A DNA stretch of 51,936 bases, from positions 1 to 51,936 of the forward strand of contig WRCJ01000002.1 of assembly GCA_009784085.1 (NCBI GenBank), in the 5' to 3' direction. The position numbers and the translations under genes are program-made. Under the pieces are notes generated by a model. That model made no database searches. It was given only the letters and a program-made list of their open reading frames with translations, and was not told the DNA's origin. Every line of letters starts with the position of its first letter. Within the stretch, counting starts at the first letter, position 1. The stretch is from Oscillospiraceae bacterium. Lineage in GTDB: Bacteria; Bacillota; Clostridia; Oscillospirales; UBA929. Shown piece by piece: positions 6,999 through 49,774 of the stretch.

Positions 6999-7073
6999 GT
7001 CGAAGGGTTTATTTGATGTTTATGATATATGAAGGAGGCACCCCCTATCGAGGCACCTCCTATCGAGGCGCCA

Positions 7074-7676
7074 CTATCGGGGTTTCCCTTTGACGACCTT
7101 CATGCGGACGAATTCCTCCCGCTCCCTCTCCTCCAGCGCTTCGGCGATGAGGGAGAGGTTTTGCTTGTAGTCGGGGATGATGATGTTTTCCAGGGCGTTG
7201 GCGCATTTCTGCGTCTTTTTGATCGCATAGGCCAGGCGATAGATGGATGTCTCCACCTCGGCCAGCTCGCATGTCAGGTGGAGGACCGCGTGAAAGTGTA
7301 TGATGGCCTCGTCCAGCATGGAATTGGTAAAGGCAAAGCCCAGCATGGCCGGCGGCGTGTCCGCCATCGTCACGCTGGGGAGGGCGACGCCCATCACAGA
7401 CCGGAAGCGGATGCGTAGCGAGTCCTCCACCGGTGCGGACTGGGCCAGCCCCTCGCAATTGCCCAGCGTGATGTTGGCCGCCTGTAGCGAGGCGTAGGCG
7501 GTACGGAAGGTGGCGTCGATTTTGCCCTGTATGTCGGCCGCGCGCTCGATTAACCCCATCATCTCCCGGATGAGGATGTTGCGCTTGCGATCCATCATCT
7601 CGTAGCCCAGCGTGGCCAGGGAGAGGGATCGCCTGAGCGCCAGCAGGTTGCCTTTTGTGGGGATTACGTTGGGCAT
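7074..7676 (-). CDS. ntpD: V-type ATP synthase subunit D
   Basis: MPNVIPTKGNLLALRRSL...MDRKRNILIREMM is the canonical subunit D N-terminus; last gene of the operon. Confidence 0.9.
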   Translation of the reverse strand: MPNVIPTKGNLLALRRSLSLATLGYEMMDRKRNILIREMMGLIERAADIQGKIDATFRTAYASLQAANITLGNCEGLAQSAPVEDSLRIRFRSVMGVALPSVTMADTPPAMLGFAFTNSMLDEAIIHFHAVLHLTCELAEVETSIYRLAYAIKKTQKCANALENIIIPDYKQNLSLIAEALEEREREEFVRMKVVKGKPR

Positions 7677-7769
7677 AGTGCGCGCCTCCTGTCGGGCACA
7701 TGCGTAAATACTACGTATCTACGCATGTTACATATACTACGCGCCTCCTGTCGGGCATATTGATATTAC

Positions 7770-9218
7770 CTAGCGCGTGTTGCGGCCCTTATAATGCTTG
7801 GCCAGCAGCACGGCGTCCACCCGATCGAGCTCCTCCCGGGGCAGCACGGACAACGTCCGCCAGCCGATCTCCAGGGTCTGGTCGATAGAACGGAACTCCG
7901 TCATGCCTTGCTGCAAGAAGTCCTTCTCGAACAGCCGCCCGAAGGTCATATAGCATTTGTCGGTCTCGGAGATCTCGTCTTCGCCGATGACGGAAGCCAA
8001 CGCCCGCGCCTCCTGCACCCGCGCATAGGAGGAAAAGAGCTGGCTCGACAATGTGGGATGGTCGTCCCGGGTCATGCCCCGGCCGATGCCGTCCTTCATC
8101 AAGCGGGACAAGGAGGGCAACACGGCGATGGGCGGGTACAGGCCGCCCCCAGCCAGCGTGCGATCCAGCACGATCTGCCCTTCGGTGATATAGCCGGTCA
8201 GGTCGGGGATCGGGTGGGTGATGTCGTCGTTGGGCATGGTCAGGATGGGCATCTGTGTCACAGAACCGGGCTTGCCCACAAGCGTCCCGGCCCGCTCGTA
8301 CAGCGAAGCCAAGTCGGAATAGAGATAGCTGGGATACCCCTTGCGGCTGGGGATTTCACCCTTGGAAGAGGAGAACTCCCGCAAAGCCTCGCAATAGGAG
8401 GCGATGTCGGTCAAAATAACCAGCACGTGGTAGCCATGGTCGAAGGCCAGGTACTCGGCGGCGGTGAGGGCGCAGCGGGGCGTCAAGATGCGCTCGATGA
8501 TGGGGTCGGAGGCCAGGTTCATGAACATGACCACCCGTTGCAGGGCGCCGGATTCCTCAAAGCTCCGGATGAAGAAGTCGGCGGTGTCATTTTTGACGCC
8601 CATGGCGGCGAATACGATGGCGAACGCGCCCTCGTCATCCCCCGTGACACGGGCCTGGCGCACGATTTGGGCAGCCAGTTCGTTGTGGCTGAGGCCGGCG
8701 CCGGAGAAGATCGGCAGCTTTTGCCCCCGGATGAGCGTGGCCATGCCATCGATGGCCGAGAGGCCGGTCTGTATGCAGGCGCGGGGATACTGCCGGGAGA
8801 CCGGGTTGATAGCCGAACCGTTGATGTCGCGCGTCTCCACGGCGATGTGCGGCCCCAAGCCGTCGATGGGCCGCCCGCCGCCGCCGAACACGCGCCCTAG
8901 GATGTCGGGGGACAGCGGTAGCATCAGGGGACGCCCGGTAAACCGTGTGTGCGTGTTCTGGAGCGATAGACCCTTTGTCCCCTCAAAGACCTGCACCACC
9001 ACACGGTCGCCGTCGATCAGGATGACGCGCCCGGTGCGGGAACGATTGCCGGATGCGCCGGGTGCACTTGATGCGCCGGATGCGCCGGATGCGCTGGGTG
9101 AACCGGATAGGGTAATCTCGGCCATTTCCTCATAGGAGACCCCCGAGACCCCCTCCAGGACAATCAATGGTCCGTTGATCTCGGTCAAACCGATGTATTC
9201 CATGCGCACGGGCGGCAA
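7770..9218 (-). CDS. ntpB: V-type ATP synthase subunit B (with a ~26-aa low-complexity insertion near the N-terminus)
   Basis: Conserved B-subunit blocks (QVFEGT.GL, PGRRGYP-like [22 protein letters not shown]); located between A and D. Confidence 0.93.
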
Positions 9219-9310
9219 CCTCCCCTCGTTGGTGTTTGGCGGCTATTGGTGGTTGGTGGCTATTGGTGGTTATTGACGTGCTATAGGTGTCGATAGGTGT
9301 CTACTGGCGG

Positions 9311-11083
9311 CTATTGGTGGTCGGCCAGCACCCGGGCCACGCAATCGCGGATATCCTTCTTGTATCGGGACAACCTGTCCCCTTTATCATCCGAAAGCTC
9401 GTATTTCATCCGGATGAGGCGATCGAAAATGCCTGTGGCGGTCAGCTGGCCGAGCGGGATGCCGAGGTCAACGAGCTTTTTGCCCTCGTCTATGAGGGTC
9501 AAGACAACATCCAGCATCGCGGCTTGTTTCTTCAGGGGCATATAGGTATCCGTGCCGTGGTAGGCATTTTGCTGCAAAAAGCCCAAACGCGCCACGCGGG
9601 CGGCCTCAATGACCAGTTTCTGCCCCTCGGGCAGGATGTCGGCGCCTATCAATTTGACGATCTCGTTGAGCTGGGACTCCTCCTGGAGGAGCCGCGCCAA
9701 CCGGGCGCGGTTCTCGCCAAAGGCACGGCCAAGCCTAGCCTCGTACCAGGGAGCCAGGTCGTCGAGATACTCCGAATAGGACGACAGCCAGTTGATAGCC
9801 GGGAAATGGCGGGCGTAGGCCAGCTGGCGGTCGAGCGCCCAGAAACAGCGGACGAACCTCTTGGTGTTTTGGGTGACCGGCTCGGAGAAGTCGCCGCCTT
9901 GGGGGCTGACCGCGCCGACGACCGTGATAGAACCCTCCCGGTCGCCCAGCGCGCTTACGTAACCGGCCCGCTCGTAAAACTCCGCCAGCCGCGAGGGCAA
10001 ATAGGCGGGGAAGCCTTCTTCGGCGGGCATCTCCTCCAAGCGTCCGGCGATTTCGCGCAACGCCTCGGCCCAGCGGGAGGTGGAGTCCGCCATGATGGCT
10101 ACGTGATACCCCATGTCCCGGTAGTACTCCGCGATGGTCATGCCGGTGTAGACAGACGCCTCGCGCGCGGCTACCGGCATGTTGGACGTATTGGCGATGA
10201 GTACGGTGCGCTCCATCAGGGGCCGCCCCGATTTTGGGTCGATGAGCGCGCCAAACTCCTCCAGTACCTGGGTCATCTCGTTGCCGCGCTCGCCGCAGCC
10301 CAGGTAGATGATGATATCGGCGTCCGACCACTTGGCCAGCTGGTGCTGGGTGATCGTCTTGCCCGCGCCAAAAGGGCCCGGGATGGCCGCGCAGCCTCCC
10401 TTGGCGATGGGGAACAGCGTGTCGATTACGCGCTGCCCGGTGACAAGCGGCATGCTGACGGGGATGCGGCGACCGACCGGCCGGGGCGTCCGGATGGGCC
10501 ATTCCTGTGCCAGCGTCAGTTTTACCGATACGTCGTCCGGCGTCTCCAGCTTGACGACCGTGTCGTTCACGCGGCAGTCGCCGGCCTTGCGGACATAGAC
10601 CACCCGGCCGGAAACGCCCGGCGGCGTCATGACGCGGTGCCGGATGGCGTTGGTTTCCCGGCACTCGGCGTACACCTGGCCGGGGGACAACGTTTGCCCC
10701 ACAGCCGTCCGGGGGGTTATCTTCCAGACTTTTTCGGCGTCCAGCGAGGGGATGTTGACACCCCGGGCGAGATAGCATCCGGTGCGCTTCTCGATGGTGC
10801 GCAGGGGCCGGGCGATCCCGTCGAAAATATTGCCGATGAGGCCGGGCCCCAGCTTGAGGGACATGGGCGCCCCCGTGCCTTCGACAGGATGGCCGGGCAT
10901 GATGCCCGCGGTATCCTCATAGACCTGCACAACGATGTCGTCGCCGCGCAGGCCGACCACCTCGCCGATCAGGCGTTCAGGGCCGACATAGACCATATCC
11001 ATCATGCTAAACTCCCGCCCGCCTCGCACGGTGACCACGGGACCATTGACACCATGTACATAATACATAGGATCGTTCCTCAA
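9311..11083 (-). CDS. ntpA: V-type ATP synthase catalytic subunit A
   Basis: P-loop GPFGAGKT, GERGNEM, and the non-homologous-region architecture typical of A subunits. ATGA-type overlap with the upstream gene. Confidence 0.95.
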   Translation of the reverse strand: MRNDPMYYVHGVNGPVVTVRGGREFSMMDMVYVGPERLIGEVVGLRGDDIVVQVYEDTAGIMPGHPVEGTGAPMSLKLGPGLIGNIFDGIARPLRTIEKRTGCYLARGVNIPSLDAEKVWKITPRTAVGQTLSPGQVYAECRETNAIRHRVMTPPGVSGRVVYVRKAGDCRVNDTVVKLETPDDVSVKLTLAQEWPIRTPRPVGRRIPVSMPLVTGQRVIDTLFPIAKGGCAAIPGPFGAGKTITQHQLAKWSDADIIIYLGCGERGNEMTQVLEEFGALIDPKSGRPLMERTVLIANTSNMPVAAREASVYTGMTIAEYYRDMGYHVAIMADSTSRWAEALREIAGRLEEMPAEEGFPAYLPSRLAEFYERAGYVSALGDREGSITVVGAVSPQGGDFSEPVTQNTKRFVRCFWALDRQLAYARHFPAINWLSSYSEYLDDLAPWYEARLGRAFGENRARLARLLQEESQLNEIVKLIGADILPEGQKLVIEAARVARLGFLQQNAYHGTDTYMPLKKQAAMLDVVLTLIDEGKKLVDLGIPLGQLTATGIFDRLIRMKYELSDDKGDRLSRYKKDIRDCVARVLADHQ

Positions 11084-11778
11084 ATCATTATTTCGGCGAA
11101 GAATTTTTCTTTCCAGTCCTCAAAGTTGGCGTCGAAGGTCAGGTTGAGGCGCCGGTTCGCGGCCTTTGCGGTCAGACCACCCAGCTGGATGGCGCTGTCG
11201 CCACGGAACTCAGCGCGGCCGCAGACGGCGGCGGTTAGCGCCGGCGCGAGGGGCATGTCCGCATGGCGTAGGCTGACGACCACCGGCGACCCCAGTGCGC
11301 CCGTCGGCGACCCCACCGACGTGTCCGTCGGTGCCCCCACCGGCGCGTATTCCTCCGCGCCCGTCGGCGACCCCACCGACGCGCCTGCCTCCCCTGCCTC
11401 CCCCGCTTCCCCCAGGACATCGACGGCCTGCCGCGCCATATCAGCCAAGCGATCGGCATAACCGGGCGTTTGCACGTAGGCCTGCACACGCTCCCGCACG
11501 GAAAGTAGCACGCCCTGCGACAGCTCGGCGCGCCGCGCGAACAACAAACGCTTGCATTCCATCTGCCTTCGGGCCACGCGCCGCCCATTTTCGGTGCGTA
11601 CGCGCGCAATTTCCTGTTTGATATAACGATAGGACTCTTCCAGCGCATCGTCCTCGGCGCCGCGCCGCGCACTCTCGCGCCGCTGGCGGACTTCTTCCAG
11701 GATAACCTGGGTATCGGCGGCGGCGTCCGACGTGATGGTTTCAGTAAACCGCCTGAGTTTTTCATCAAAATCCGGCAA
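11080..11778 (-). CDS. ntpE: V-type ATP synthase subunit E-like stalk protein (TTG start, ~43-aa low-complexity insertion)
   Basis: Position immediately upstream of A. The N-terminus is a charged coiled coil and the C-terminal domain is globular. TTG at 11778 follows a G-rich Shine-Dalgarno. Confidence 0.65.
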   Translation of the reverse strand: MPDFDEKLRRFTETITSDAAADTQVILEEVRQRRESARRGAEDDALEESYRYIKQEIARVRTENGRRVARRQMECKRLLFARRAELSQGVLLSVRERVQAYVQTPGYADRLADMARQAVDVLGEAGEAGEAGASVGSPTGAEEYAPVGAPTDTSVGSPTGALGSPVVVSLRHADMPLAPALTAAVCGRAEFRGDSAIQLGGLTAKAANRRLNLTFDANFEDWKEKFFAEIMI

Positions 11779-11792
11779 AATATCCCCCCGCC

Positions 11793-11997
11793 CCCATTAT
11801 ATATTGAAACCGCGCCCCCCCGTAGGGGCGGCATCCTGCCGCCCGCGACCCCCGTAACCCCCAAACGGCGTATATGGATCCTGCGACTGCGCACAGGATG
11901 ACGGGGGATTATCGTAGGGCGCGGCATCCGTGACGCGCCGTTCGGCATCCGTGACGCGCCGTTCGGCATCCCGCCGCCCGCGCCCATTATATATTGA
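11793..11997. repeat. 175-bp hairpin-rich (REP-like) insert between the subunit F and E genes, bracketed by a perfect 15-bp direct repeat
   Basis: CCCATTATATATTGA occurs at 11793-11807 and 11983-11997; the latter contains the subunit F stop codon. The interior holds GGGCGGCA-tcc-TGCCGCCC, ATCCTG-N10-CAGGAT and GGCGCG-N10-CGCGCC hairpins, plus a 20-21 nt tandem copy. Confidence 0.65.
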
Positions 11998-12295
11998 CGC
12001 CGATCGCTTCGCGGATGTACTTTGTGATGGAATCCGGGCTACGGCCGGTGCCGTGGCGATCGGGGATCTCGATGACCAGCGTGCCAGTCAGCTTGAGTTT
12101 GAGCTCGAAGATCAAATCGGGGATCGAAGCAGCCAGCTTCTCCGTGATGAGCAGCACGCCGATGTCCGGGTTGGCGATGACATCGGACACTGCCGCCCGC
12201 GCCGCCTCCGGCGTCAACACGCGCATCCCTTCTACCCCGGCCAGGCGAAACCCGGTCACCGTGTCTGTATTGTCAGAAAGTACAAAGAGACGCAC
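11987..12295 (-). CDS. V-type ATP synthase subunit F (GTG start)
   Basis: VRLFVLSDNTDTVTGFRLAGVEG...VLLITEKLA...IIEIPDRHG is the canonical subunit F. GTG at 12295 overlaps the TAG of the proteolipid gene by 1 nt. The 250-aa ORF in the track is an upstream extension. Confidence 0.8.
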   Translation of the reverse strand: MRLFVLSDNTDTVTGFRLAGVEGMRVLTPEAARAAVSDVIANPDIGVLLITEKLAASIPDLIFELKLKLTGTLVIEIPDRHGTGRSPDSITKYIREAIGVNI

Positions 12296-12723
12296 TAGAA
12301 CTTCCCCAAAATCGTAAACGAAATGATCATGCCGTACAGCGCGATGCCCTCCGCCAACGCCACGAAGATAAGCGCCTTGCCGAAGGTCTTTTCGTTTTCC
12401 GAGATGGCGCCCAGCGCCGCCGACGCGGAGGCGGCCACGGCGATGCCGCCGCCTATGCCGGATAGCCCGGTGGCCAACGCCGCCGCCACCATGCCCAGCC
12501 CGGCTTGGTTGTCCAGCGCGGCCGCCGCCGCCGCCTCGGCCTCGCCGGCGGCCAACGCCCGCCCGGCTAGCGCGACGGTCAGCGCAATCCCCAAGACGAA
12601 AAACGAGGCGATGTTGCCAAGGAGCGCCCCCTTCACAGATTTGCCGGACACGCGGCGCCGGTAGATGGGATACAGCGGCAGAAGGATCACCAGCGTGAGG
12701 ATAAGCGCAAACAGGTATTCCAT
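12295..12723 (-). CDS. ntpK: V-type ATP synthase proteolipid subunit K/c
   Basis: Hydrophobic hairpins with GLSGIGGGIAVA and ALAEGIALYGMIISF (conserved Glu). The ATG at 12723 is chosen over the longer track ORF. Confidence 0.8.
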   Translation of the reverse strand: MEYLFALILTLVILLPLYPIYRRRVSGKSVKGALLGNIASFFVLGIALTVALAGRALAAGEAEAAAAAALDNQAGLGMVAAALATGLSGIGGGIAVAASASAALGAISENEKTFGKALIFVALAEGIALYGMIISFTILGKF

Positions 12724-12790: not shown

Positions 12791-14728
12791 TTATTGGCTG
12801 TTCCGCGAGGAATAATCGATGATGATGGGATGGTACGGTTTGCCGTCCCCCTCGTAGAAGCGGGAAAAAATCTCATAGAACTCCAGGCGCAGCACCTGGA
12901 TGCCCACCAACAGGCCCTCGATGCCCATGACGATGAGGTTGCCGACGGCGACCACCGCGATGTTGGGGCTGTCATGGCCGCCGGCCAGCATGAACACGAC
13001 CGACATCATGGAGGCGTGGCTGATGGCGTAGGCGCCGACGCGCAGGAAAGAGATGGTGTTGGTGATGTACGACAGCAACACCTCGATGAGTTCGAAGAGG
13101 TTCTCCAGGATAAAATCCGCCATGCTCCCCGGTTTTCGCGCACGGCGGTGCGTGATGAGGTGGGACAGGGGCTCCCGCAGGAAAACAAGCGCAAAGGGAA
13201 GCGCGGCGAAGGCCAGCAGGAGGCCAGAGGGCAGGATTTGGTCGGCGAAACCCAAAATGGGCAACGTCGCGCAGATGACGGAGAGGTATAGAATCAAACC
13301 GGCCAGCCCCGACGGCCCAAACAACAGCTTGCCGTAATTCTTTTGCCTGATGCCGTTGAGCAGGTTGGCCAGCATGGAGAAAGCCAGCAACCCGACGCCC
13401 ATATAGACGGCCAGGCGCAGCCCCAGCGCCGTGTTGTCGCCGGAGGCCAATATCCTGAAATTGAGGCCGACAAGCCCTGCCGGCTCGAATCCGAACACGC
13501 TGCCATACACAAAAAGCCCGAACACAACGGCCGACGCGCCCATATAGCAGACGGCGCGCCCCAGCCACATGCCTTTGCATTTCCACAGCAGGAAACCGAT
13601 GACCATCAGCAGCGCACCCTGCCCGGCGTCGCCGAACATCAAGCCGAACAGCAACGTGAAGGTGATGCACATCATCGGCGTGGGATCGGCCTCGTGGTAA
13701 GAAGGCAGCCCGTACATCGCGATAAATGGCTCAAAAGCCCTGAATATGCGCGGGTTCTTGAGCAGGATGGGCGGCGTGTACGCCGAGACGGCCTCGGGTT
13801 CGTCGGATAAGACCACGACGGAGAGGTTGGGCTGGTGGCCCAGAAGATCGGTAAAGGCTTCAAAATCCGGTTCCGGCACCCAGCCCAGCAGATAGAAACT
13901 CTCGCGGGTGTGCGCGGCGTATCGGCGGATGTCGAAGCTGTCGTTCATAAACCGGATGTAGGAGTAGTGCCGCAGGAAGTTGTCCCGCTCGCGCATGAGC
14001 AAGTCCACAAGCTCGGCCTCCACGTCCGACAGTCGGGCAGCCGCCTTTTCGGAGTTCTCCTGAATCTCGTGGATCGCCTGCTCGCGGGTGCCGTGGACGC
14101 GCTCGGAGATGCGGATGCGCTCGAAGTGTAGCGAGGCAAACAGGGCGTCCACCTTCTCCTTGTCGCTGCGCGGCACCATATACATGCCCCAGACCCAGTC
14201 CCGCTCGATGCTGGTGGGGAAGAAAAAGAGGTCAAACCGCTCGTTTAAGTGGCCGATGAAGTTGTTGTAGGTCTCCCGGGGCATGCGGCCGAACCGGAAT
14301 TTGATGTACGAAACGTTAAAAAATTCTTCCAAGGGGACGTTGACTTCCAAGATATGCCTGAGATGCGTGAGGATGCGCTCGTTTTCGTCGATGCGCTGTT
14401 TGATTTCCTCCGACTCCCGCGCGAGCGCGTCAAAACGGTCCCCCACCTGGCGCAAATAGGTTAAAACCTTGTCCGGCGTGTCGTTTTGCGATTCGAAAGG
14501 CCGGTAATCCAGTTTGATGCCCAGCCGGTCAGCCAGGGACTCAGCCTGCCTGAGCATGTCGACGAAAGGGTTCTGCTGATCGAAGGGGTAGAGGAATTTT
14601 ACGTTCTTCATGATTTTGGTCGTCGGCTCTGGGTGAAACTGTTGGTTGATTATGCATGAATAGACCACGGAATCGAACTCGCCCAGCGGCCCCGCTATGG
14701 TCACCAGTTTCATGGGAACAACAGACAT
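12791..14728 (-). CDS. ntpI: V-type ATP synthase subunit I/a
   Basis: 645 aa, with a soluble N-terminal half and a polytopic C-terminal half containing the LRLxxxxxxE-type motif (SFLRVGAYAISHA); operon position. Confidence 0.9.
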   Translation of the reverse strand: MSVVPMKLVTIAGPLGEFDSVVYSCIINQQFHPEPTTKIMKNVKFLYPFDQQNPFVDMLRQAESLADRLGIKLDYRPFESQNDTPDKVLTYLRQVGDRFDALARESEEIKQRIDENERILTHLRHILEVNVPLEEFFNVSYIKFRFGRMPRETYNNFIGHLNERFDLFFFPTSIERDWVWGMYMVPRSDKEKVDALFASLHFERIRISERVHGTREQAIHEIQENSEKAAARLSDVEAELVDLLMRERDNFLRHYSYIRFMNDSFDIRRYAAHTRESFYLLGWVPEPDFEAFTDLLGHQPNLSVVVLSDEPEAVSAYTPPILLKNPRIFRAFEPFIAMYGLPSYHEADPTPMMCITFTLLFGLMFGDAGQGALLMVIGFLLWKCKGMWLGRAVCYMGASAVVFGLFVYGSVFGFEPAGLVGLNFRILASGDNTALGLRLAVYMGVGLLAFSMLANLLNGIRQKNYGKLLFGPSGLAGLILYLSVICATLPILGFADQILPSGLLLAFAALPFALVFLREPLSHLITHRRARKPGSMADFILENLFELIEVLLSYITNTISFLRVGAYAISHASMMSVVFMLAGGHDSPNIAVVAVGNLIVMGIEGLLVGIQVLRLEFYEIFSRFYEGDGKPYHPIIIDYSSRNSQ

Positions 14729-14748
14729 GGGATAAACACCTCACATGC

Positions 14749-17250: not shown

Positions 17251-17306
17251 GGGAAATCTAAATCCCTTCCTTGGGCGCCTTCGGGGCGCCATTCTTCTTC
17301 GCAATC

Positions 17307-36587: not shown

Positions 36588-36598
36588 GCAAACACCCC

Positions 36599-39524: not shown

Positions 39525-39555
39525 GTTCTCCCTTCTCTCTTCACACCCATATCGC

Positions 39556-40038
39556 TTACACGTGGATGCCCACGTGGATGCCGATGATTTTATAGCGCAG
39601 GGCGCCCGCAGGCACGTTCACCTGCACCTCGTCGCCCTCATGTTTCCCCAGCAATGCGCAGCCAAAAGGGGATTCGTCCGATATGCGCGACTCCAAGGGA
39701 TTGGCTTCCTGGGAGCCGACGACCGTGTACTCTTCCCGCGCCTCGGTGTCCAAATCGATCACGGTGACGCGGCACCCCGCCGCCACCACGCCGGAGGCAT
39801 CGTTGGGGGTAATCACCTGCGCGTGGGATAAGATTTCCTCCAGCTCTACCATCCGGGAAAACATGCGCCCCTGCTCGTTTTTGGCTTCGTCGTATTCGCT
39901 GTTTTCCGAAAGGTCGCCAAAGGATCGGGCCTCTTTGATCTGCTCGGCAACCTCTTTCCCCTTCACGGTTTTCAGGTAATTCAGTTCTTCCTGCAAGGCT
40001 TTCTTTCGCTCGGCGGTCAGTTTGTATGTTTTTTGCAT
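39556..40038 (-). CDS. greA: Transcription elongation factor GreA
   Basis: GDLSENSEYDEAK motif and a C-terminal FKBP-like domain. It carries an extra GIHVGIHV tail from a 12-nt tandem duplication. Confidence 0.92.
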   Translation of the reverse strand: MQKTYKLTAERKKALQEELNYLKTVKGKEVAEQIKEARSFGDLSENSEYDEAKNEQGRMFSRMVELEEILSHAQVITPNDASGVVAAGCRVTVIDLDTEAREEYTVVGSQEANPLESRISDESPFGCALLGKHEGDEVQVNVPAGALRYKIIGIHVGIHV

Positions 40039-40140
40039 GTCACACTACAGCTCCTCAGGTCTCTGGGCATTACTAATCTTATCGAAAGTAATCGCCATAA
40101 CATAATACTTAAAGATACTTAAAGGGAAACGTTACGTATG

Positions 40141-40169
40141 AGTATACGTATTTCCGGCCCATTTGTCAA
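40141..40169 (-). promoter_or_regulatory. Consensus-like sigma-70 promoter for greA-lysS
   Basis: Minus strand: TTGACA (40164-40169, overlapping the ctpA stop), 17 nt, TATACT (40141-40146). Confidence 0.6.
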
Positions 40170-41437: not shown

Positions 41438-41530
41438 GGACGCTCCCTAAGTTATCAGTTGCTTATTATGTATTCCATCGTTGCCAATATGTAGTTGCCT
41501 ATATGTATACATCTAATTGCCTATCGTTGC

Positions 41531-42886
41531 CTATACGTATTTCGTCGGGTTGACCGGGGAACCGCTGATACGGACCTCGAAGTGCAGATGCGGCCCCGTG
41601 GACAGCCCCGTGGATCCGACCAAGCCGACGCTTTCCCCCCGGGATACGGATTGGCCCCTAGAGACCAGGATGCGGCTCAAATGGGCATACAGCGTGGATT
41701 TCCCGCCCCCGTGGTCGACGACCACATAGTTCCCGTACCCGCTGGCATAGTTGGCGATGATGACAGTGCCCGAAGCCGCGGACACGACCTTGGAACCGCT
41801 GGGCGCCGGTATATCGATGCCGCTGTGCATCCGGTATTCTTTGAGGATGGGGTGGTACCTCATGCCATAAGAACTCGAAATCTTGCCAGACGCCGGGCAT
41901 GGCCACAAAAAGCCGCCCCCCGCGTAGTCGCCGCTATTGCTGGGCGGTGGATCGTCGTCGATGTCGTCTTCGAAATCGTCGTCGTCAATATCGCCGCCGC
42001 CCTGGCCGCCGCCGCCGCCGCCTTTGGCCCTCTCTTCTTCCCTTTTCCTGCGTTCCTCTTCCTTTCGCCTGCGCTCCTCTTCCCTCCTGCGCGCTTCCTC
42101 CTCTTCCCTGAGCCTGCGCTCTTCCTCGATACGCTGTATTTCCAGTATGATCTCGTTTTCTATCTCTTCGGTCTGCCGGTCGAACTCCTCCTCCAGCTTC
42201 CGGTAATCGTCTACCTTGGACTCGATCTCCTCGATGAGGAGCAACTGATCGGCGTACTGCGCCTCCTGCTCGGCCCGCCGCTCCGACAACGCGGCCTTGA
42301 TGGCGGATTGCTCGTCCCGGTCCCGTTGCAACGCCTTCTTCTCGGCGTCAACCTGCTCGCGCGCGAGCTTGAGTTCATCCAGCATCTTGCGGTCATACGC
42401 AATGATGTCGTTGACATCGCCCAGGCGGCCCAATAAGTCGGAGAAGCTATCGGCCTTCAGCAAGATGCCCAAGTATTGCGCGTCGCCGGCCTCTTCCATC
42501 GAGCGGATGCGCGTCCGGAAGAGTTCCATCTGGCGGGACTCTTCCCGCAATGCCTCCTCCAGGGCCGCCTGATGTTCGTCTATGGCAATCTCCAACGCCT
42601 CGATCAGGAGTTCGGCGTTTTCGATTTCCGCGCTCGTGATCTCGATCTGTTTGTCGATGGCTTCCTTCTTCTCCAAAGCCGAGGCCCGCTCGTCGGCCAG
42701 CTGGCCGATTTCCGCTTGCACCTTCACCTTCTCTTTGGCCAGCGCCTCGGCTTCTTCCCGTAGCACGTCCAGCAAAGACTCGGCGCCGGCGGGCCGGACA
42801 AAGTTGAGGATCAAACCGGCCAGCAGGGTAACAGCCAGCAAAACGGCCATTGTCATGGCAAAGATACGCACACGCTTCGAACTCAT
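41531..42886 (-). CDS. Coiled-coil M23 (LytM) peptidase, EnvC-like
   Basis: Signal/TM, a long coiled coil, a highly charged R/E then G/D block, and C-terminal HSGIDI...GSTGLSTGPHLHFEVR. AAAGGAGGT Shine-Dalgarno lies 9 nt before the ATG at 42886. Confidence 0.85.
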   Translation of the reverse strand: MSSKRVRIFAMTMAVLLAVTLLAGLILNFVRPAGAESLLDVLREEAEALAKEKVKVQAEIGQLADERASALEKKEAIDKQIEITSAEIENAELLIEALEIAIDEHQAALEEALREESRQMELFRTRIRSMEEAGDAQYLGILLKADSFSDLLGRLGDVNDIIAYDRKMLDELKLAREQVDAEKKALQRDRDEQSAIKAALSERRAEQEAQYADQLLLIEEIESKVDDYRKLEEEFDRQTEEIENEIILEIQRIEEERRLREEEEARRREEERRRKEEERRKREEERAKGGGGGGQGGGDIDDDDFEDDIDDDPPPSNSGDYAGGGFLWPCPASGKISSSYGMRYHPILKEYRMHSGIDIPAPSGSKVVSAASGTVIIANYASGYGNYVVVDHGGGKSTLYAHLSRILVSRGQSVSRGESVGLVGSTGLSTGPHLHFEVRISGSPVNPTKYV

Positions 42887-42902
42887 AGTAGGTGAACCTC
42901 CT

Positions 42903-43811
42903 TTATACACGCAGGAACTTCCGAATCGTCAGCACGCTGCCGCCAATGCCGGCCAGGAAACCGGCCAGTAAGAAAATGGCCAGCACCGGAAGCAGGACAT
43001 CCCCGACATTCAGGGCATGGATCATCGGGATCCTGCCCACCATCCGGGCCAGGAAACCGGCGAATACGTCATAGAGCCTCCACTGGAGGAAAAATGCCAC
43101 GATGGATCCCAAGAGCCCCAGCATAAACCCCTCGATGACAAAGGGCCAGCGGATAAACCGCTTGGTGGCGCCCACCATCCGCATCACGGCTATCTCCTCC
43201 CGCCGGTCGAAGGTAGCCAATTTGATTGTGTTGGAGATGATAAAAATCGATACCGCCATCAAGATGACAATCAGCAACAGGCAAATGGTGTTGACCGTAT
43301 CGCGTATCTGGCCCAAATCCTCCACAATATCCAGCCGGGCATGCACCACGGCCACGCCGGGCAGGAGCTCCAGCGCGTCGATGGTCTCCTGCATCAGGTC
43401 GGCGTCCATGATTTGCACCCTGTAACGATCGCGCAGGGGGTTGTCGTCGCCGAACCCCAATAGAAAATTGGTCTCCGGATCTACCTTGCCGGAAAACACT
43501 TCCAACGCCTCGTCCCGGGAAATCAATTCCGCGCTCTGGACATTCCGCATGATCGCTTCATTCTTGGCCAGATCGGTGCCAAACTGCTTGGCTTCGTCCG
43601 AGGTCATGGTTTCGTCGAGCACCACCAAGACTTCGTTGTTGTTTTGAAGCTCCTGGATCATATTGTCCAAGTTCAAGGCCAGCAGTGAAAAGCTGCCCAT
43701 GATGAGAAGGCATGCCACAATGACGCCAACGGCCGCGAAACTCATAAAGCCGTGCAGGAAAATACCTCGGATGCCCTCGCGGAAAAAGTAACTAGTTTCG
43801 TATCGCTTCAT
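42903..43811 (-). CDS. ftsX: Cell-division permease-like protein FtsX
   Basis: FtsX topology (four TM helices and a large first extracytoplasmic loop). It overlaps the ftsE 3' end. Confidence 0.88.
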   Translation of the reverse strand: MKRYETSYFFREGIRGIFLHGFMSFAAVGVIVACLLIMGSFSLLALNLDNMIQELQNNNEVLVVLDETMTSDEAKQFGTDLAKNEAIMRNVQSAELISRDEALEVFSGKVDPETNFLLGFGDDNPLRDRYRVQIMDADLMQETIDALELLPGVAVVHARLDIVEDLGQIRDTVNTICLLLIVILMAVSIFIISNTIKLATFDRREEIAVMRMVGATKRFIRWPFVIEGFMLGLLGSIVAFFLQWRLYDVFAGFLARMVGRIPMIHALNVGDVLLPVLAIFLLAGFLAGIGGSVLTIRKFLRV

Positions 43812-44487
43812 ATTGGTAATACCCGCCTGTCCGGTCGCCGATCACGCGCCCGCCGTCTATGGCGATGACGCGCTTCGAAAACCGGTTGACCAATTCCTTT
43901 TCGTGGGTCACTGCCAGAACGGTCGTCCCCAGGGCATTGATGCGTTCGAGCAACATCATGATCTCCAGGCTGCGGGCCGGATCGAGGTTGCCGGTAGGCT
44001 CGTCGGCGATGATCATTTTGGGGTTGTTGATGAGGGCCCGGGCGATAGACACCCGTTGTTGCTCCCCGCCGGACAGCTCCGCGGGCCGCCGGCGGGCTTT
44101 ATGCGACAAACCGACCAAATCCAGCACATAGGGCACCCGGATTTTGATTTCCCTGGGCGAGGAGCCCACCACGCGCATGGCGAAGGCGACGTTTTCATAG
44201 ACGCTTTTTTTCTCGACGAGGCGAAAATCCTGAAAGATCACGCCCAGCGTGCGGCGCAAAAAGGGGATGTCCTTCTGCCTCACGGCATTGACGTTGTACC
44301 CATTGATCAGCACGCGCCCCTCCGTCGGCTTGATCTCCCCCGTGAGGAGCTTGATGATCGTGGACTTGCCCGAACCGGAAGGCCCGACCAAAAAGGAAAA
44401 CTCCCCGTCTTCTATCTGGAGGCTGACGCCCTTGAGGGCGCGGGTGCCGTTGGGATACGCCTTGTACACGTCTATCATGCGGACCAT
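43792..44487 (-). CDS. ftsE: Cell-division ATP-binding protein FtsE
   Basis: ABC motifs GPSGSGKST, LSGGEQQRV and IIADEPTGNLD. Confidence 0.92.
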   Translation of the reverse strand: MVRMIDVYKAYPNGTRALKGVSLQIEDGEFSFLVGPSGSGKSTIIKLLTGEIKPTEGRVLINGYNVNAVRQKDIPFLRRTLGVIFQDFRLVEKKSVYENVAFAMRVVGSSPREIKIRVPYVLDLVGLSHKARRRPAELSGGEQQRVSIARALINNPKMIIADEPTGNLDPARSLEIMMLLERINALGTTVLAVTHEKELVNRFSKRVIAIDGGRVIGDRTGGYYQYEAIRN

Positions 44488-44489
44488 CG

Positions 44490-45578
44490 TTAAAACTCTT
44501 CCCGGGAGGTCAGATATTTTTTCACCATCATGGCCACCTTGAAGATGATGGCGTGGTCAAACTCGCGGAGATCGAGCCCCGTCAGCTTCTTGATCTTTTC
44601 CAGCCGGTACACCAGCGTGTTGCGGTGGACGAACAGCCGGCGCGAGGTCTCGGACACATTGAGGCTATTTTCGAAGAACTTCTGGATGGTGATCAGCATC
44701 TCCTGATCCAGCGCGTCGATGGAGTTCTTCTTGAACACCTCGGATAGGAACATCTCGCACATCGTGACCGGCAATTGGTAAATCAATCGCCCCAACCCCA
44801 GGTTCTCGAAGTTGATGATGGATTTTTCGGCGTCGAAGACCTTGCCCACCTCGATGGCGATCTGCGCTTCCTTGTAGGAGGAGGCCAAATCCTTGAGGCT
44901 GGACGCCACCGTGCCGATGCCGATGACCGTGTGGACATACACCTCGGAATTGACAGTCTCCTCGATGGCGGCGGACAGCTTGCGCAAGTCCATCGTGTTG
45001 ACGCCGCCCCTGACATCCTTGACCAGCGCGATGTCGGTTTCGTTCAGGCTGACAACGAAGTCATATTGCTTGTCCGGGAAGAGGCTTTGGATCACATCGA
45101 CGACGGAGAGCTCGATCCGCCCCACCTGGCGCACCAAAATAACCACCCGGGGGAGTTCGCTCTCGAAGTTCAGCTCCCGGGAGCGCATGTGGATGTCGCC
45201 CGGCAAGATGTTGTCAAGTAAAATATTCTTGACAAAGGTGGCGCGATCGTGCTTTTCATCGTAGAATGTCTTGGCGCCGTTGAGCGCCACGGCCGACAGC
45301 AAACAAATCTCCCTCGCCCTGTTGTCTTGTCCCTGCGCAAACACCGCGAATTCAAAGCGCACGCCCCAGCTAAAAAGCGCCTTGTATTGGAATCCGTCGA
45401 AGACGGTCACGGGTTCGTCGGACGCGTTGAGCGCCGAGGCCGCCGCCGCCCGCTGCGTGCCGATGAGCGCTGGCTCGGTGCAGGCGATGACCTCGCCTTC
45501 GGCGTCGATGACGCCAACAGTACACTCCACGGCGTCCTTCATTTGCGATACGATGCTTTGAAACAGTCTGCTTGACAT
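44490..45578 (-). CDS. PucR/CdaR-family transcriptional regulator
   Basis: C-terminal PucR HTH (TSRRLFVHRNTLVYRLEKIKKLTGLDL) and a CdaR-like N-terminal region. Start taken at the ATG at 45578, with GGGAGGG upstream. Confidence 0.75.
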   Translation of the reverse strand: MSSRLFQSIVSQMKDAVECTVGVIDAEGEVIACTEPALIGTQRAAAASALNASDEPVTVFDGFQYKALFSWGVRFEFAVFAQGQDNRAREICLLSAVALNGAKTFYDEKHDRATFVKNILLDNILPGDIHMRSRELNFESELPRVVILVRQVGRIELSVVDVIQSLFPDKQYDFVVSLNETDIALVKDVRGGVNTMDLRKLSAAIEETVNSEVYVHTVIGIGTVASSLKDLASSYKEAQIAIEVGKVFDAEKSIINFENLGLGRLIYQLPVTMCEMFLSEVFKKNSIDALDQEMLITIQKFFENSLNVSETSRRLFVHRNTLVYRLEKIKKLTGLDLREFDHAIIFKVAMMVKKYLTSREEF

Positions 45579-45709
45579 GATGATAGTCCCTCCCAACACA
45601 TTAAAACGAACAGTCCCTATCTAATATATATTAGTATGGTTTCGATCAGTTTGCAAGGGTTACTTTACATAATTCACATATTTGTAACAAAGTACCTTGC
45701 GAATTTCTT

Positions 45710-45900: not shown

Positions 45901-46167
45901 ATGATCCCCAAAGAAAAAAAGTCCATGATTATCATGGAAAACCGCGTCCACGATACCGATACGGGGTCCCCCGAGGTACAGATTGCCATCTTGACAGTGC
46001 GTATCAGCGAGTTGACCGAACACCTCAAGTTACACAAAAAAGACAATCACTCCCGCCGCGGCTTGCTCAAAATGGTCGGCCAACGCCGTAGCCTGCTCGA
46101 TTACCTCCAAAAAAAGGATATCGAGCGGTATCGCGCCATCATCGCCAAGCTGGGCATCCGCAAGTAG
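45901..46167 (+). CDS. rpsO: 30S ribosomal protein S15
   Basis: [39 protein letters not shown] is canonical S15; 88 aa from the ATG at 45901. Confidence 0.93.
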
Positions 46168-46180
46168 GGGCGACTCGCAG

Positions 46181-46199
46181 GGGCGGCTTCCGGCCGCCC
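46181..46199 (+). promoter_or_regulatory. GC hairpin between rpsO and pnp (attenuating terminator / RNase III-type processing stem candidate)
   Basis: GGGCGGC-ttccg-GCCGCCC, with no U-tract after it. Confidence 0.45.
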
Positions 46200-46247
46200 G
46201 CCATCATGGAGGGCTGTAATAGTGAATGAAGTGATATGGAGGAAAGT

Positions 46248-48413
46248 ATGCTAAAACAACGCGAATTCCCTGCCGCCCGCACCTTCGAGACCACGCTGGG
46301 CGGCCGCCGCCTGACCGTCGAGACCGGCCAGCTGGCCGAACTGGCCAACGGCGCCTGCCTGGTGCGTTGCGGGGACACCACCGTATTGGTGACCGCCGCC
46401 GCCTCGGCCGCGCCGCGCCAAGGCATCGATTATTTCCCACTGTCCGTGGATTTCGAGGAGAGGCTGTATTCGGTGGGCCGCATCCCCGGCTCTTTCCTGC
46501 GCAGGGAAGGGCGCCCCTCGGAAAAGGCTGTGTTGGCCTCCCGCCTCATCGATCGCCCGCTGAGGCCCCTGTTCCCCCCCGACATGCGCAACGACGTGGC
46601 TGTGACGGCCACGGTTTTGAGTATGGAACCCGACTGCGCCCCCGAGATCCCCGCCATGATCGGCGCGTCCATCGCCCTGTCGATCTCCGACATCCCTTGG
46701 GGCGGGCCCATCGCCGGCGTATCGGTGGGATGCGTGGACGGGAAGTTTATCATCAATCCGGACGCCGCCGCCCGGGAAGCCAGCACGCTGGCGTTGACCG
46801 TGGCCGGGACTGCGCACAAGGTGGTCATGATCGAGGCCGGCGCCAACGAAGTCTCAGAAGAGGCCATGTTTGACGCGATACAGTTGGCCACGGCGGAAAT
46901 CAAAAAGCTGACCGCCTTTATCTCCTCGATTGCCGCCGAGATTGGCAAGCCCAAGTTTGCACCTGTCAGCGCGGCTTTCCACACCGAACTCTACGACGAG
47001 CTTGAGGGTTCGATCATGGAAAAACTGCGCTATTGCTTGGATACCGACGACAAAAACATCCGCGAAGAACGCCTTTCCGCCCTGCGTGCCGAGCTTGTTG
47101 CCGAGTTCGCCGAGAAATACCCCGATATCGAGGCCGGCTTGGGCGACGTGCTGTACAAACTGCAAAAGCAAGTCGTGCGCCGCTGGTTGCTGGACGAGAA
47201 AAAGCGCGTGGACGGGCGCGGGTTGCTGGATGTCAGGCCGCTGTCGGCCGCCGTGGGGCTCTTGCCCCGCGCCCATGGATCCGGCTTGTTTTCCCGGGGA
47301 CAGACCCAGGTGCTGACGACTGCCACGCTGGGCACCATATCGGATCAGCAAAAGCTGGACAACATCTTCGATTCGGAAACCAAGCGGTATATGCACCACT
47401 ACAACTTTCCCTCCTATTCGGTGGGCGAGGCGCGCCCGTCGCGTGGGCCCGGCCGCCGCGAGATCGGACACGGCGCCTTGGCCGAGCGGGCGTTGGAACC
47501 GGTCATCCCCAACGAAGAGGAGTTCCCCTACTGTATCCGCCTGGTGAGCGAGGTGCTGTCCTCCAACGGATCCACCTCGCAAGGCGCCGTGTGCGGCTCC
47601 ACGTTGGCCCTGATGGACGCCGGCGTGCCGATCAAGGCGCCGGTGGCCGGCATCTCCTGCGGTCTGGTGACCGAGGGCGACCGGTGGCTGACGTTTGTGG
47701 ATATCCAGGGCGTGGAAGACTTCTTCGGCGACATGGACTTCAAAGTGGCCGGCACAAAGGCCGGCATCACGGCCATCCAGATGGATCTCAAGTCGGACGG
47801 CTTGACGCCCGAAATCATCCGCGACGCGCTGACGATCACCAAAGACGCCCGCATCGCGATTTTGGACGAAATCATGCTCCCCTGCATCCCGGCGGCGCGC
47901 GAGGATCTCTCCCCCTACGCGCCGAAGATGCTCCAGACCACCATCGACCCGGAGAAGATCCGGGATGTCATCGGCAAGGGCGGTAGCGTGATCCAGAAGA
48001 TCACCGCCGAGACCGGCACCAAGATCGACATCGAGGACGATGGGCATGTGTACATCTCGGCGCCCAACCGGGACGACTGCCAGCGGGCGCTGGCCATCAT
48101 CGAGGCTATCGTGCTCGATCCGCAGATTGGCGACATCTTCTACGGCCGCGTTACGCGGCTGATGACCTTCGGCGTCTTCGTGGAGTTCGCCCCCGGCAAA
48201 GAGGGCATGATCCATATCTCCAAGTTGGCGCCGCAACGGGTGGCCAAAGTGGAGGACGTGGTATCCATCGGCGACATGACATGGGTCAAGGTGGTCGAGA
48301 TCGACGAAAAGGGGCGCATCAACCTATCCCGCCGCGACGCTCTTTCGGAGTTGGAAAAACGCGGGCAGGGGCAGGGGCAGGGGCAGGGTGCGAATCAGAA
48401 ATCCCATGCGTGA
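46248..48413 (+). CDS. pnp: Polyribonucleotide nucleotidyltransferase (PNPase)
   Basis: Two RNase PH domains, KH and S1 domains (GRVTRLMTFGVFVEF). The C-terminus ends in GQGQGQGQG. ATG at 46248 preferred (GGAGGA upstream); ATG at 46236 is possible. Confidence 0.95.
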   Translation: MLKQREFPAARTFETTLGGRRLTVETGQLAELANGACLVRCGDTTVLVTAAASAAPRQGIDYFPLSVDFEERLYSVGRIPGSFLRREGRPSEKAVLASRLIDRPLRPLFPPDMRNDVAVTATVLSMEPDCAPEIPAMIGASIALSISDIPWGGPIAGVSVGCVDGKFIINPDAAAREASTLALTVAGTAHKVVMIEAGANEVSEEAMFDAIQLATAEIKKLTAFISSIAAEIGKPKFAPVSAAFHTELYDELEGSIMEKLRYCLDTDDKNIREERLSALRAELVAEFAEKYPDIEAGLGDVLYKLQKQVVRRWLLDEKKRVDGRGLLDVRPLSAAVGLLPRAHGSGLFSRGQTQVLTTATLGTISDQQKLDNIFDSETKRYMHHYNFPSYSVGEARPSRGPGRREIGHGALAERALEPVIPNEEEFPYCIRLVSEVLSSNGSTSQGAVCGSTLALMDAGVPIKAPVAGISCGLVTEGDRWLTFVDIQGVEDFFGDMDFKVAGTKAGITAIQMDLKSDGLTPEIIRDALTITKDARIAILDEIMLPCIPAAREDLSPYAPKMLQTTIDPEKIRDVIGKGGSVIQKITAETGTKIDIEDDGHVYISAPNRDDCQRALAIIEAIVLDPQIGDIFYGRVTRLMTFGVFVEFAPGKEGMIHISKLAPQRVAKVEDVVSIGDMTWVKVVEIDEKGRINLSRRDALSELEKRGQGQGQGQGANQKSHA

Positions 48414-48465
48414 AACAAGGCGTGAAACAAGGCATGATACAAGGCATGAAACGATGCATGAAACG

Positions 48466-49737
48466 ATGCCTGACTTAGTGCCTGAACCCGTGTATGAAAA
48501 GATCACGTTGCCCAATGGGGTCAGGTTGCTGTTCGAGGAAATCCCCCATGTGCGGTCGGCTACGGTCGGTATTTGGGTGGGTTGTGGTTCCCGCCTGGAG
48601 CCCCGGCACCTGTCCGGCGTCTCCCACGCTTTGGAACACATGGCGTTTAAAGGCACGAAAAAGCGCACGGCCGAGAAAATCGCCGCCGATTCCGACGCCA
48701 TCGGCGGGCAGGTCAACGCCTTTACCACAAAGGAGTGTACCTCTTATTACGCGCGGGCGTTGCGCGATCACCTGCCCCTGGCCATCGACATCATCACCGA
48801 CATTTTCAGCTCGCCGCTCATCACCGCCCAAGATTGGGAAACCGAGCGGGGGGTTATCCTGGAAGAGATTGGCATGTACGAGGACACGCCGGAAGACCTT
48901 GTCACGGAGCGCCTGTTTGGCGCCGTGTTCCGCGGTTGCTCGTTGGGCAGGCCGATTTTGGGGTCGGCTGGCGCGTTGCGGCGGATGAGCGCCGGCCAGA
49001 TAGCCCGTTATAAAGACAGCCACTACCGTGCCGGCAGTACGGTGGTGGCCCTCAGCGGCAACTTCTCCCCCGGGGACAAGGCCGCGTTGGTAGATTGCTT
49101 CGCGCCCATGGCCGCTGAACCGGCCTTGACGCCGCCGACTTCGTCGCTGGCGCCATCCTTTACGGTCCGCCGCAAGGATATCGAGCAGAACCACCTGTGT
49201 TTGGCTTGGCCGTCCCTGCCCTATAACAGCCCCGACCGCTACACGCAACAGGTGCTGTCGAACATCTTGGGCGGCGGCGTGTCCTCCCGGCTGGTGCAGG
49301 AGATCCGGGAGGCGCGGGGGTTGTGCTATTCGATCTATACCTTTGCCACCGGGCACGAAGATACCGGCTTATTTGGCGTCTACACGGCGCTCTCCCCGGA
49401 GGCCGAGCGGAAGGCGTTGCCGCTCATCGCACAGCTGGTGGGGGACTTTGCCCGGCATGGCCCCACCGAAGACGAGGTCGCCAGGGCGAGGGAGCAGGTC
49501 AAAGCCAATGTCCTCATGGGCTTTGAATCGACCTCGGCGCGTATGACGCACTTGGCCCGTTGCGAATTGCTCCTTGGGAAAGTCATCCCGGCGCGTGAGC
49601 TGGTTGAGGCGTACGACGCGGTCACCAGGGAGTCTGTGTGCGCGTTGGCGCGGCGTATCTTTGTCCCGGAATCGCTCTGTTTTTCGGCGGTCGGCCGGTT
49701 GTCTGCGGCTTCGGAGTATAGGAAGCTGTTAGCATAG
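48466..49737 (+). CDS. M16-family (pitrilysin/insulinase-like) zinc peptidase
   Basis: Inverted zinc motif HALEHMAFKGT, with N-terminal ...LPNGVRLL.... The start is ambiguous: in-frame ATGs at 48406, 48454 and 48466 lie inside a 12-nt repeat array. Confidence 0.85.
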   Translation: MPDLVPEPVYEKITLPNGVRLLFEEIPHVRSATVGIWVGCGSRLEPRHLSGVSHALEHMAFKGTKKRTAEKIAADSDAIGGQVNAFTTKECTSYYARALRDHLPLAIDIITDIFSSPLITAQDWETERGVILEEIGMYEDTPEDLVTERLFGAVFRGCSLGRPILGSAGALRRMSAGQIARYKDSHYRAGSTVVALSGNFSPGDKAALVDCFAPMAAEPALTPPTSSLAPSFTVRRKDIEQNHLCLAWPSLPYNSPDRYTQQVLSNILGGGVSSRLVQEIREARGLCYSIYTFATGHEDTGLFGVYTALSPEAERKALPLIAQLVGDFARHGPTEDEVARAREQVKANVLMGFESTSARMTHLARCELLLGKVIPARELVEAYDAVTRESVCALARRIFVPESLCFSAVGRLSAASEYRKLLA

Positions 49738-49774
49738 GAAGCTGTTATTTTATAATTCTTGAGGAGGGTTTTAG

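Follow-up and report, generated by a model that had tools for sequence, protein, structure and literature searches.

Short tandem duplications and gene-end repeats on a 52-kb contig of a termite-gut Oscillospiraceae bacterium

Introduction

Replication slippage and microhomology-mediated tandem duplication (MTD), the source of repeats of the minisatellite or variable number tandem repeat type, generate short head-to-tail copies in arrays that expand and decay. A preprint attributes most tandem duplications to microhomology-mediated events, gives 50–60% without microhomology in bacterial reference genomes, and reports that deletion of Rad27 in yeast raises the tandem-duplication rate (bioRxiv 10.64898/2026.02.28.708716). 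Here, we analyze repeats of this kind in a 52-kb contig of an uncultured Oscillospiraceae bacterium from a termite-gut metagenome (WRCJ01000002.1, assembly GCA_009784085.1, positions 1 to 51,936; hereafter, the window). An initial annotation of the window had drawn attention to eight gene ends at which the last 12–18 nt, stop codon included, appeared to be duplicated immediately downstream, with or without intervening filler.

The window shares with slippage and MTD the head-to-tail copies of 6–57 nt, their expansion and decay, coding periods in multiples of three, and, in a small set of events, microhomology arms of 0–8 nt, about half of which are zero, a share similar to that given in the preprint. 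It differs in a repeat density 5–11 times that of GC-matched and syntenic relatives, in a strong insertion bias relative to its closest relative, and in showing no copy-number variation between samples at the contig level. In Beggiatoaceae and cyanobacteria, a single heptamer, TAACTGA, forms intergenic direct repeats at ~169 loci (PMC4679880); those of the window are likewise short, intergenic and stop-containing, but each locus repeats its own local sequence. Nor do the repeats have the features of phase-variable contingency loci, given that the units are mostly 8–21 nt long, lie at gene ends or in frame, and are identical in sequence in three samples at the contig level. As detailed below, a lineage-wide excess of short tandem duplications, produced by slippage or template switching and filtered by selection, probably explains the repeats at gene ends.

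Excess and distribution of short tandem duplications

Every string in the eight repeat sets was found where the initial annotation had placed it, with the stop codons positioned as claimed for ntpD, ntpA, the subunit F gene, the anti-sigma-like open reading frame (ORF), the lysA-like gene and the M16 peptidase gene (Table 1). The assertion that such duplications are too frequent for coincidence also held. In the window, 69 pairs of exact direct repeats no more than 200 nt apart have a length of 11 nt or more, 49 reach 12 nt and 27 reach 14 nt, far above the ~3–7, 0.6–1.9 and 0–0.2, respectively, obtained from shuffled sequences (Markov orders 1 to 5 and local shuffles).

The excess extends to the comparison with related genomes, for which we used contigs from the nearest relatives (L082 and L087, both from the same sample, L084, L085 and L086) along with larger sets of related loci. 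Tandem Repeats Finder (TRF) identified 29 clusters with a score of at least 40 and 19 with a score of at least 50, compared to 6.2 and 1.8 expected from the rate in 27 GC-matched related loci totaling 409 kb (Poisson P = 3e-11 and 9e-14). For exact direct repeats that are no shorter than 12 nt and lie within 200 nt of each other, the density is 0.94 per kb, compared to a median value of 0.107 per kb in 80 related loci. In syntenic comparisons, the window has 9 clusters in 30341–45599, where L087 has 2, and 5 clusters in the V-type ATPase (V-ATPase) operon, where L084 has 1. Repeat density is not raised in the nearest relatives, and the trait therefore arose within the lineage of the window.

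Altogether, 50 repeat clusters were detected by TRF in the window, 38 of which lie within genes. The periods of the coding repeats are almost all multiples of three (9, 12, 15, 18, 21 and 57 nt), the few exceptions being weak matches of about two copies, and those of the non-coding repeats are 8, 10, 11, 14, 15, 16 and 17 nt; this combination, periods of 3n in coding DNA and any period elsewhere, is the signature expected of selection. Repeats are densest in intergenic DNA, at 3.3 per kb; the opening and closing 60 nt of genes carry 1.9 and 1.8 per kb, respectively, and gene interiors carry 0.63. Such a gradient, symmetric between both gene ends, is what selection acting on a uniform supply of duplications is expected to leave behind. 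The copies lie head to tail without a spacer at ntpD, the anti-sigma-like gene, greA, the M16 gene, the AC39 stop, the pnp-M16 junction and about 40 other loci; the ntpB-ntpD (B-D) spacer and the spacer between the subunit F and E genes (F-E) are not arranged in this manner.

The specificity for gene ends and stop codons that had been proposed is not borne out by these results: the same repeats are common inside genes, with periods of 3n, where they yield lineage-specific protein insertions, and gene starts are as enriched as gene ends. Half of the original case survives, in that the overall rate is not ordinary, but there is no clear enrichment of gene ends beyond what tolerance would allow.

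Insertions in proteins of the window lineage

Alignment of 16 orthologous proteins with those of L082 and L087 revealed 11 internal insertions of at least 3 aa (119 aa in total) in the window proteins, compared to 2 (19 aa in total) in the closest relative. Many of these 11 coincide with repeat loci, namely, those in NtpB, PcsB, an S41 peptidase (insertion PPPPP), TrmFO (insertion DDD), topoisomerase I and GreA. The alignments indicate that the differences in protein length are insertions in the lineage of the window and not deletions in the others. In particular, the 18-aa insert of NtpB is missing in every aligned relative, including one that is 82% identical; the insert of PcsB, which is rich in E, R, K, G and D, is not present in the L087 orthologue; and topoisomerase I, with a 10-aa insertion and a longer tail, exceeds the L087 protein by 37 aa. 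GreA consists of 160 aa, against 156 aa in its sequenced close relatives, which have no second GIHV. The greA repeat does lie just inside the stop codon, as had been described, but being located within the gene, it misfits the notion of a stop-included duplication placed downstream.

The distance to the available relatives limits what can be reconstructed. The best relatives of NtpB are Oscillospiraceae metagenome-assembled genomes with at most 75% identity in a species-representative genome set, and the nearest NtpD and GreA sequences in a large protein collection are 79% and 82% identical, respectively. Because no strain-level relative was found in the collections searched, intergenic ancestral states are not directly readable. 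The spacers of the relatives cannot be aligned with those of the window, and comparison was restricted to spacer lengths and protein indels.

Repeats at gene junctions

The V-ATPase operon is encoded on the minus strand. Downstream of ntpD, two copies of the unit are out of frame, with their stops 14 and 29 nt away. The 92-nt spacer that follows ntpA consists almost wholly of copies of the ntpA-stop motif (GCTATTGGTGGT; diverged forms, GCTATAGGTGTC and CGATAGGTGTC), including the part that had been taken for filler, where the copies read CTAT(A/T)GGTG(T/G). The array at the lysA-like gene shows the same composition: its outer copies are identical over 13 nt and the inner three have diverged, with a 12-bp terminator-like hairpin at 22640–22671 on its 3' side. 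Because the ntpA and lysA fillers are made of diverged unit copies, most of what was called ‘duplication with filler’ represents tandem arrays that are older and have decayed. The apparent series from pure tandem duplication to duplication with filler is mostly a series of ages, with the fillers of ntpA, lysA and the anti-sigma-like gene all resembling decayed copies of the local unit. The last of these gene names is itself tentative, given that it was assigned from the position of the ORF and a weak domain match (Table 1).

Two further junctions belong with the eight initially listed, the AC39 stop (8 nt × 2) and the pnp-M16 junction. At the latter, each of the 12-nt units (48408–48500) ends in TGA in the pnp frame and has an ATG in the M16 frame, such that, from its sequence, the array reads as a duplicated ATGA stop/start overlap. 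At the other end of the M16 gene, the 16-nt duplication causes a frameshift by which approximately the last four residues are replaced.

The B-D and F-E spacers have a different architecture. In the B-D spacer, the filler contains a near-perfect hairpin, at 7698–7728, that is shorter than the whole filler; both the hairpin and the duplicated ntpD Shine-Dalgarno sequence had been recognized, but the stem measures 14 bp, not 8. The flanking 18-mer had been grouped with the stop-containing units, but no stop codon occurs in it; it is located 12 nt downstream of the ntpB stop, and the Shine-Dalgarno sequence within it is that of ntpD. In the metagenome, the filler is present as a single copy (depth, 9.4). 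Template-switch mutations associated with quasipalindromes are described by the models of Ripley and Lovett, and a near-perfect hairpin abutting a duplicated flank is as expected of snap-back synthesis; a snap-back or template-switch origin is thus plausible for this filler, although the site differs from such cases in that neither the window nor the fetched loci yielded a donor or template. In the F-E spacer, the 15-mer reported at the end of the subunit F gene was confirmed and actually extends to 21 nt with one mismatch, and the cluster that it bounds includes a perfect 21-nt × 2.4 tandem at 11922–11971. In both spacers, one copy of the duplicated flank keeps the stop of the preceding gene and the other keeps the ribosome-binding site of the next, as any insertion surviving in an operon spacer of 18–34 nt would need.

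The same junctions are variable in relatives. In L084, the NtpD of which is 76% identical, a PIN/MazE toxin-antitoxin pair on the opposite strand (7589–8226) is located between ntpA and ntpB, and a 61-aa ORF occupies the ntpB-ntpD spacer; the spacers of other relatives span 101–326 nt and contain unrelated hairpins, and the genes of L086 overlap. The spacers of the ntp operon are insertion hot spots in this clade. No known RNA families or tRNAs were found in the spacers.

A REP-like family in the F-E spacer

Repetitive extragenic palindromes (REPs) and REPINs are associated with RAYT transposases in the account of Nunvar et al. 2010 (PMC2817692). Like these elements, the modules located at 28812–28842, after rpsO and within the F-E spacer have a GTAG head followed by a GC-rich hairpin and lie between genes. 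The F-E modules are also present in high copy, at a depth of 400–21000x against 8.6x for the flanks, a value that reflects the whole metagenome rather than copy number per genome. A 26-mer from the module, GTAGGGCGCGGCATCCNTGACGCGCC, was found in more than 116 metagenome contigs, many of which carry it as inverted doublets (+/- pairs) about 50 nt apart, another REPIN feature. Differences are also apparent. No RAYT (Y1 transposase) gene was detected among the window genes scanned. Moreover, REPs are usually species-specific, whereas the identical 26-mer spans contigs with a GC content of 36–67%, mostly from termite gut but including at least one from human gut. In the window, the family covers 11817–11946, 28725–28842 and 46164–46200, and it is represented in loci L088–L167 as well; after rpsO, the GTAG head of the module overlaps the TAG stop codon.

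We considered whether long flanking duplications are a general property of these modules and rejected this possibility, given the weak difference between the 5 of 58 clusters elsewhere in which direct repeats of at least 12 nt flank the module and the 9 of 290 controls that have them. REPs are not known to generate target duplications on insertion, a further difference from the F-E cluster.

Proposed origin of the repeats

Slippage or template switching, the latter suggested in the initial annotation, is the best mechanism for most sites. The lineage has accumulated tandem duplications of 6–57 nt at 5–11 times the density of its relatives. Under this scenario, they would be created at sites throughout the DNA when replication slips or switches template, partly with the help of microhomology, and the arrays, once made, would expand and decay. 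Within genes, to judge from the observed pattern, only events of 3n length in tolerant loops and termini would survive, and between genes, duplications of any length would do so. A unit that contains the stop codon would leave the protein intact, and for this reason, repetition of the last 12–18 nt plus stop further downstream would stand out as the conspicuous class. Two sites represent separate events, the insertion of a REP-like hairpin cluster in the F-E spacer and that of a unique quasi-palindromic segment of 41 nt in the B-D spacer. Short tandem duplications are a known kind of event and the proposed mechanism is ordinary; it is the rate that is unusual. The repeats themselves and their excess, distribution and polarity are directly observed, whereas we infer the slippage mechanism and any cause of the raised rate.

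Alternative explanations

Several observations weigh against the explanation by duplication and selection. Among 14 perfect two-copy duplications with a period of at least 8 nt, microhomology is 0 nt in 7 and 2–8 nt in the rest, where chance would leave 75% with none; with half of this small set lacking microhomology, simple slippage is not demonstrated, and the values fit the picture presented in the preprint cited above in a sample too small for proof. No indel was found at any repeat in the Logan contigs of the source run (X1) and two other samples (X2 and X3), contigs from which rare variants are dropped. Nothing in the window accounts for the raised rate: the only informative repair genes on the contig, sbcC and sbcD, are intact. 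The data cover 52 kb of the genome, so that ‘genome-wide’ is an extrapolation. Finally, the units contain a stop codon in 9 of 18 junction or intergenic events, compared to 10% (all non-coding DNA) or 16% (spacers of up to 210 nt) in a simulation of tolerated duplications (binomial P = 2e-5 and 9e-4, respectively). In this simulation, random duplications of the observed lengths counted as tolerated when they were confined to intergenic DNA, extended across a stop, or covered both a start and its ribosome-binding site.

The excess of stop codons is the principal argument for a mutational hot spot at gene boundaries, whereby, for example, a replication fork or an RNA polymerase that stalls at a terminator or gene end would provoke template switching and hence more duplications at stops, and it agrees with the observation that several arrays begin exactly in the last codons. 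However, the simulated null is too generous to the intergenic class, because the spacers have been inflated by the events themselves (~600 of 2271 nt) and much of a short spacer is constrained. By rough binomial estimates, correction for spacer inflation raises the expected fraction to ~0.22 (P ~0.01), and if half of the spacer positions are assumed to be constrained, it rises to ~0.35 (P ~0.14). Furthermore, the ancestral spacers at the junctions measured only about 0–34 nt, so that almost any surviving insertion touches a stop or a ribosome-binding site; many repeats are located deep within genes; and the enrichment, being symmetric between the first 60 nt of genes and the last 60 nt, disfavors a mechanism peculiar to 3' ends. 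We therefore consider a hot spot unlikely, while allowing some real boundary preference for part of the stop excess, which would count against duplication and selection as the full explanation and which, with n = 18, is inseparable from selective tolerance in this window.

Very small mobile elements could also have left the repeats, either as target-site duplications, as the initial annotation suggested, or as footprints of their excision. In favor of this view, the B-D, F-E and lysA sites each have an inserted segment between direct repeats of 13–21 nt, in the manner of insertion sequence (IS) and miniature inverted-repeat transposable element (MITE) target-site duplications; the insert in the B-D spacer combines an inverted repeat with its 18-nt flanking repeats; and in the F-E spacer, a small element that is multi-copy at metagenome depth, and often occurs as inverted doublets elsewhere, does sit between direct repeats of 15–21 nt. 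For that site the suggestion holds in part, but a single general kind of target-site duplication is not supported. The lengths of the direct repeats vary (13, 15–21, 17 and 18 nt), the fillers are unrelated to one another, and no common element links the sites; unlike in IS and MITE insertions, the inverted repeats are not at the element ends. The B-D filler is single-copy, the REP-like module lacks consistent flanking repeats elsewhere, the pure tandems require no element, and no transposase gene was detected among the window genes scanned. The direct repeats are, in addition, longer than most known target-site duplications. As a general account, mobile elements are thus improbable, even more so than a boundary hot spot.

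Still less credible is that the repeats were selected as functional elements, such as back-up stops, translational-coupling spacers or sites for RNA-binding proteins. Several of them do lie in the operon for the V-ATPase, a complex in which subunit ratios are important, the pnp-M16 array supplies a row of in-frame TGAs, and the B-D insert brings a stable predicted hairpin and a second Shine-Dalgarno sequence. However, each site has its own unit with no common motif, the same repeats are frequent within genes, and the spacers of relatives at the same junctions are unrelated. Back-up stop codons as a general reading were rejected, given that the additional stops after ntpD are out of frame. A common motif or cleavage site, suggested by the presence of CTATCG or ATAG in several units, was rejected as well: TAG stops and a general NNA bias in last codons explain it, with CGATAG occurring at 33 sites in the window and the last sense codon ending in A in 18 of 46 genes, compared to A at 12% of third positions overall. 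No common motif was found at the duplication boundaries.

That the repeats are assembly or sequencing artefacts, a concern raised by the origin of the window as a metagenome contig with a depth of only ~8–9x, is excluded in practice, because independent assemblies and other samples reproduce them: an independent MEGAHIT contig from ENA (L081) is identical across 5946–9787, spanning three sites; the Logan contigs of X1 match all sites without gaps; the greA duplication, a 10-nt × 2 repeat at 40105 and the 12-nt array at 16251–16316 are all unchanged in contigs of X2 and X3, at least one of the contigs being from another study; and single reads should span the repeats, all of which fall short of the assembly word length.

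Genomic context

The coordinates of the repeat sites, the REP-like modules and the genes concerned are collected in Table 1; Pfam matches support the gene calls, that of pnp included.

Table 1. Repeat sites, REP-like modules and genes in the window
Feature	Coordinates	Strand	Remarks
ntpD end: three 14–15-nt units (...CCTCGATAG, mRNA strand)	7036–7079	-	first unit holds ntpD TAG
ntpB-ntpD spacer: 59-nt insertion, 18-nt direct repeat (7681–7698, 7740–7757) around 41-nt filler	7681–7757	-	
ntpB-internal 9/18/27-nt repeats	9048–9108	-	encode 18-aa insert at 9054–9107
ntpA-ntpB spacer: copies of ntpA terminal motif (CCACCAATAGCC)	9229–9321	-	three 17-mers and diverged copies
Subunit E-like gene repeats, 9–25 nt	11284–11412	-	39-aa insert at 11293–11409, not in L084 orthologue
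F-E spacer: 15-nt direct repeat including subunit F TAA, flanking ~170-nt REP-like cluster	11787–11997	-	
AC39 stop: perfect 8-nt × 2 repeat across stop, 12 nt from subunit I start	14740–14755	-	
Carbamoyltransferase gene: 12-nt × 5.2 in-frame array near 3' end	16251–16316	-	also in X2, X3
ORF downstream of ECF sigma gene: four decaying ATGG(A/C)TGA copies, last codons and TAG into spacer	17455–17506	-	
lysA-like gene: ~5 14-nt units between TAA and hairpin	22574–22646	+	
Topoisomerase I lysine-rich C-terminal tail: 57-nt × 3 (sub-periods 12–30 nt)	32882–33151	-	
greA: perfect in-frame 12-nt × 2 repeat directly before stop	39559–39582	-	adds GIHV
PcsB-like M23 peptidase gene: 3-/12-/21-nt repeats	41942–42127	-	53-aa insert at 41942–42100
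pnp-M16 junction: GGGCAG × 4.3 inside pnp, then 12-nt units	48363–48500	+	
M16 peptidase gene: 16-nt tandem duplication in last codons	49718–49749	+	TAG in second copy
REP-like modules	11822–11843, 11914–11939, 28812–28838(-), 46164–46200		GTAG head and GC-rich palindrome
ntpD	7074–7676	-	Pfam; stop CTA at 7074–7076
ntpB	7770–9209/9218	-	Pfam
ntpA	9311–11083	-	Pfam; stop at 9311–9313
Subunit E-like gene	11080–11778	-	Pfam
Subunit F	11987–12295	-	Pfam; stop at 11987–11989
Subunit K	12295–12723	-	Pfam
Subunit I	12791–14728	-	Pfam
AC39 (subunit C/d)	14749–15798	-	Pfam
ORF downstream of ECF sigma gene (‘anti-sigma’)	17493–18425	-	position and weak zf-HC2 match, E=0.0023
ECF sigma gene	18422–19120	-	Pfam
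lysA-like decarboxylase gene	21279–22580	+	Pfam
greA	39556–40038	-	Pfam
M16 peptidase gene	ends at 49737	+	Pfam

Several other features of the window were recorded. The carbamoyltransferase ORF (16144–17304) encodes 386 aa, with a C-terminal extension of ~70 aa past the Pfam domains that ends in ...RCLYCDN; the ORF contains the 12-nt × 5 array and possibly represents a fusion to part of a regulatory chain. Third-position GC content is low (~0.5, against 0.75–0.83 elsewhere in the window) in two islands, one at 1–7000, where sbcCD and a PIN gene accompany an archaeal-type ATPase/DUF234 gene, and the other at 24600–28700, which includes small ORFs along with a KilA-N gene and a further PIN gene. 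Recent acquisition would fit the second island, which contains few repeats (0.24 per kb) and is too short for a test. At the contig start (106–173), upstream of a PIN-domain gene, unannotated DNA carries an 8/16-nt array (CTTTACAT/CTTTGCAT) of 8.5 copies. Within ntpD, at position 7116, one X1 contig has a 6-nt deletion variant (depth, 7 of 35, at a likeness threshold of 85%), its probable source being a strain or species that is related to this one and present in that sample.

Implications

These findings suggest that the pattern of duplication at gene ends largely reflects which duplications survive, and neither a new element nor a stop-directed process is demonstrated. What merits interest is the rate and the insertion bias: the window carries 5–11 times as many short tandem duplications as expected from related loci and far more insertions than the sister lineage, and these insertions reach even the V-ATPase, GreA, topoisomerase I and PcsB, in an organism described as a free-living gut bacterium.

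More tentatively, and at best as a possibility, the lineage might have a heritable, insertion-biased, duplication-prone mutation spectrum, perhaps with loss or alteration of a flap-processing function or a single-strand exonuclease, candidates proposed because of the analogy with the Rad27 effect in yeast, and maybe with a preference for gene boundaries. Bacterial genomes are usually deletion-biased; such a spectrum, if real, would run counter to this bias and would have visibly lengthened housekeeping proteins.

Genome annotation in this clade is affected, given the lineage-specific, low-complexity inserts in proteins and the inflated operon spacers. If the excess proves to be genome-wide, this lineage would lend itself naturally to studies of how the rate of bacterial tandem duplication is determined.

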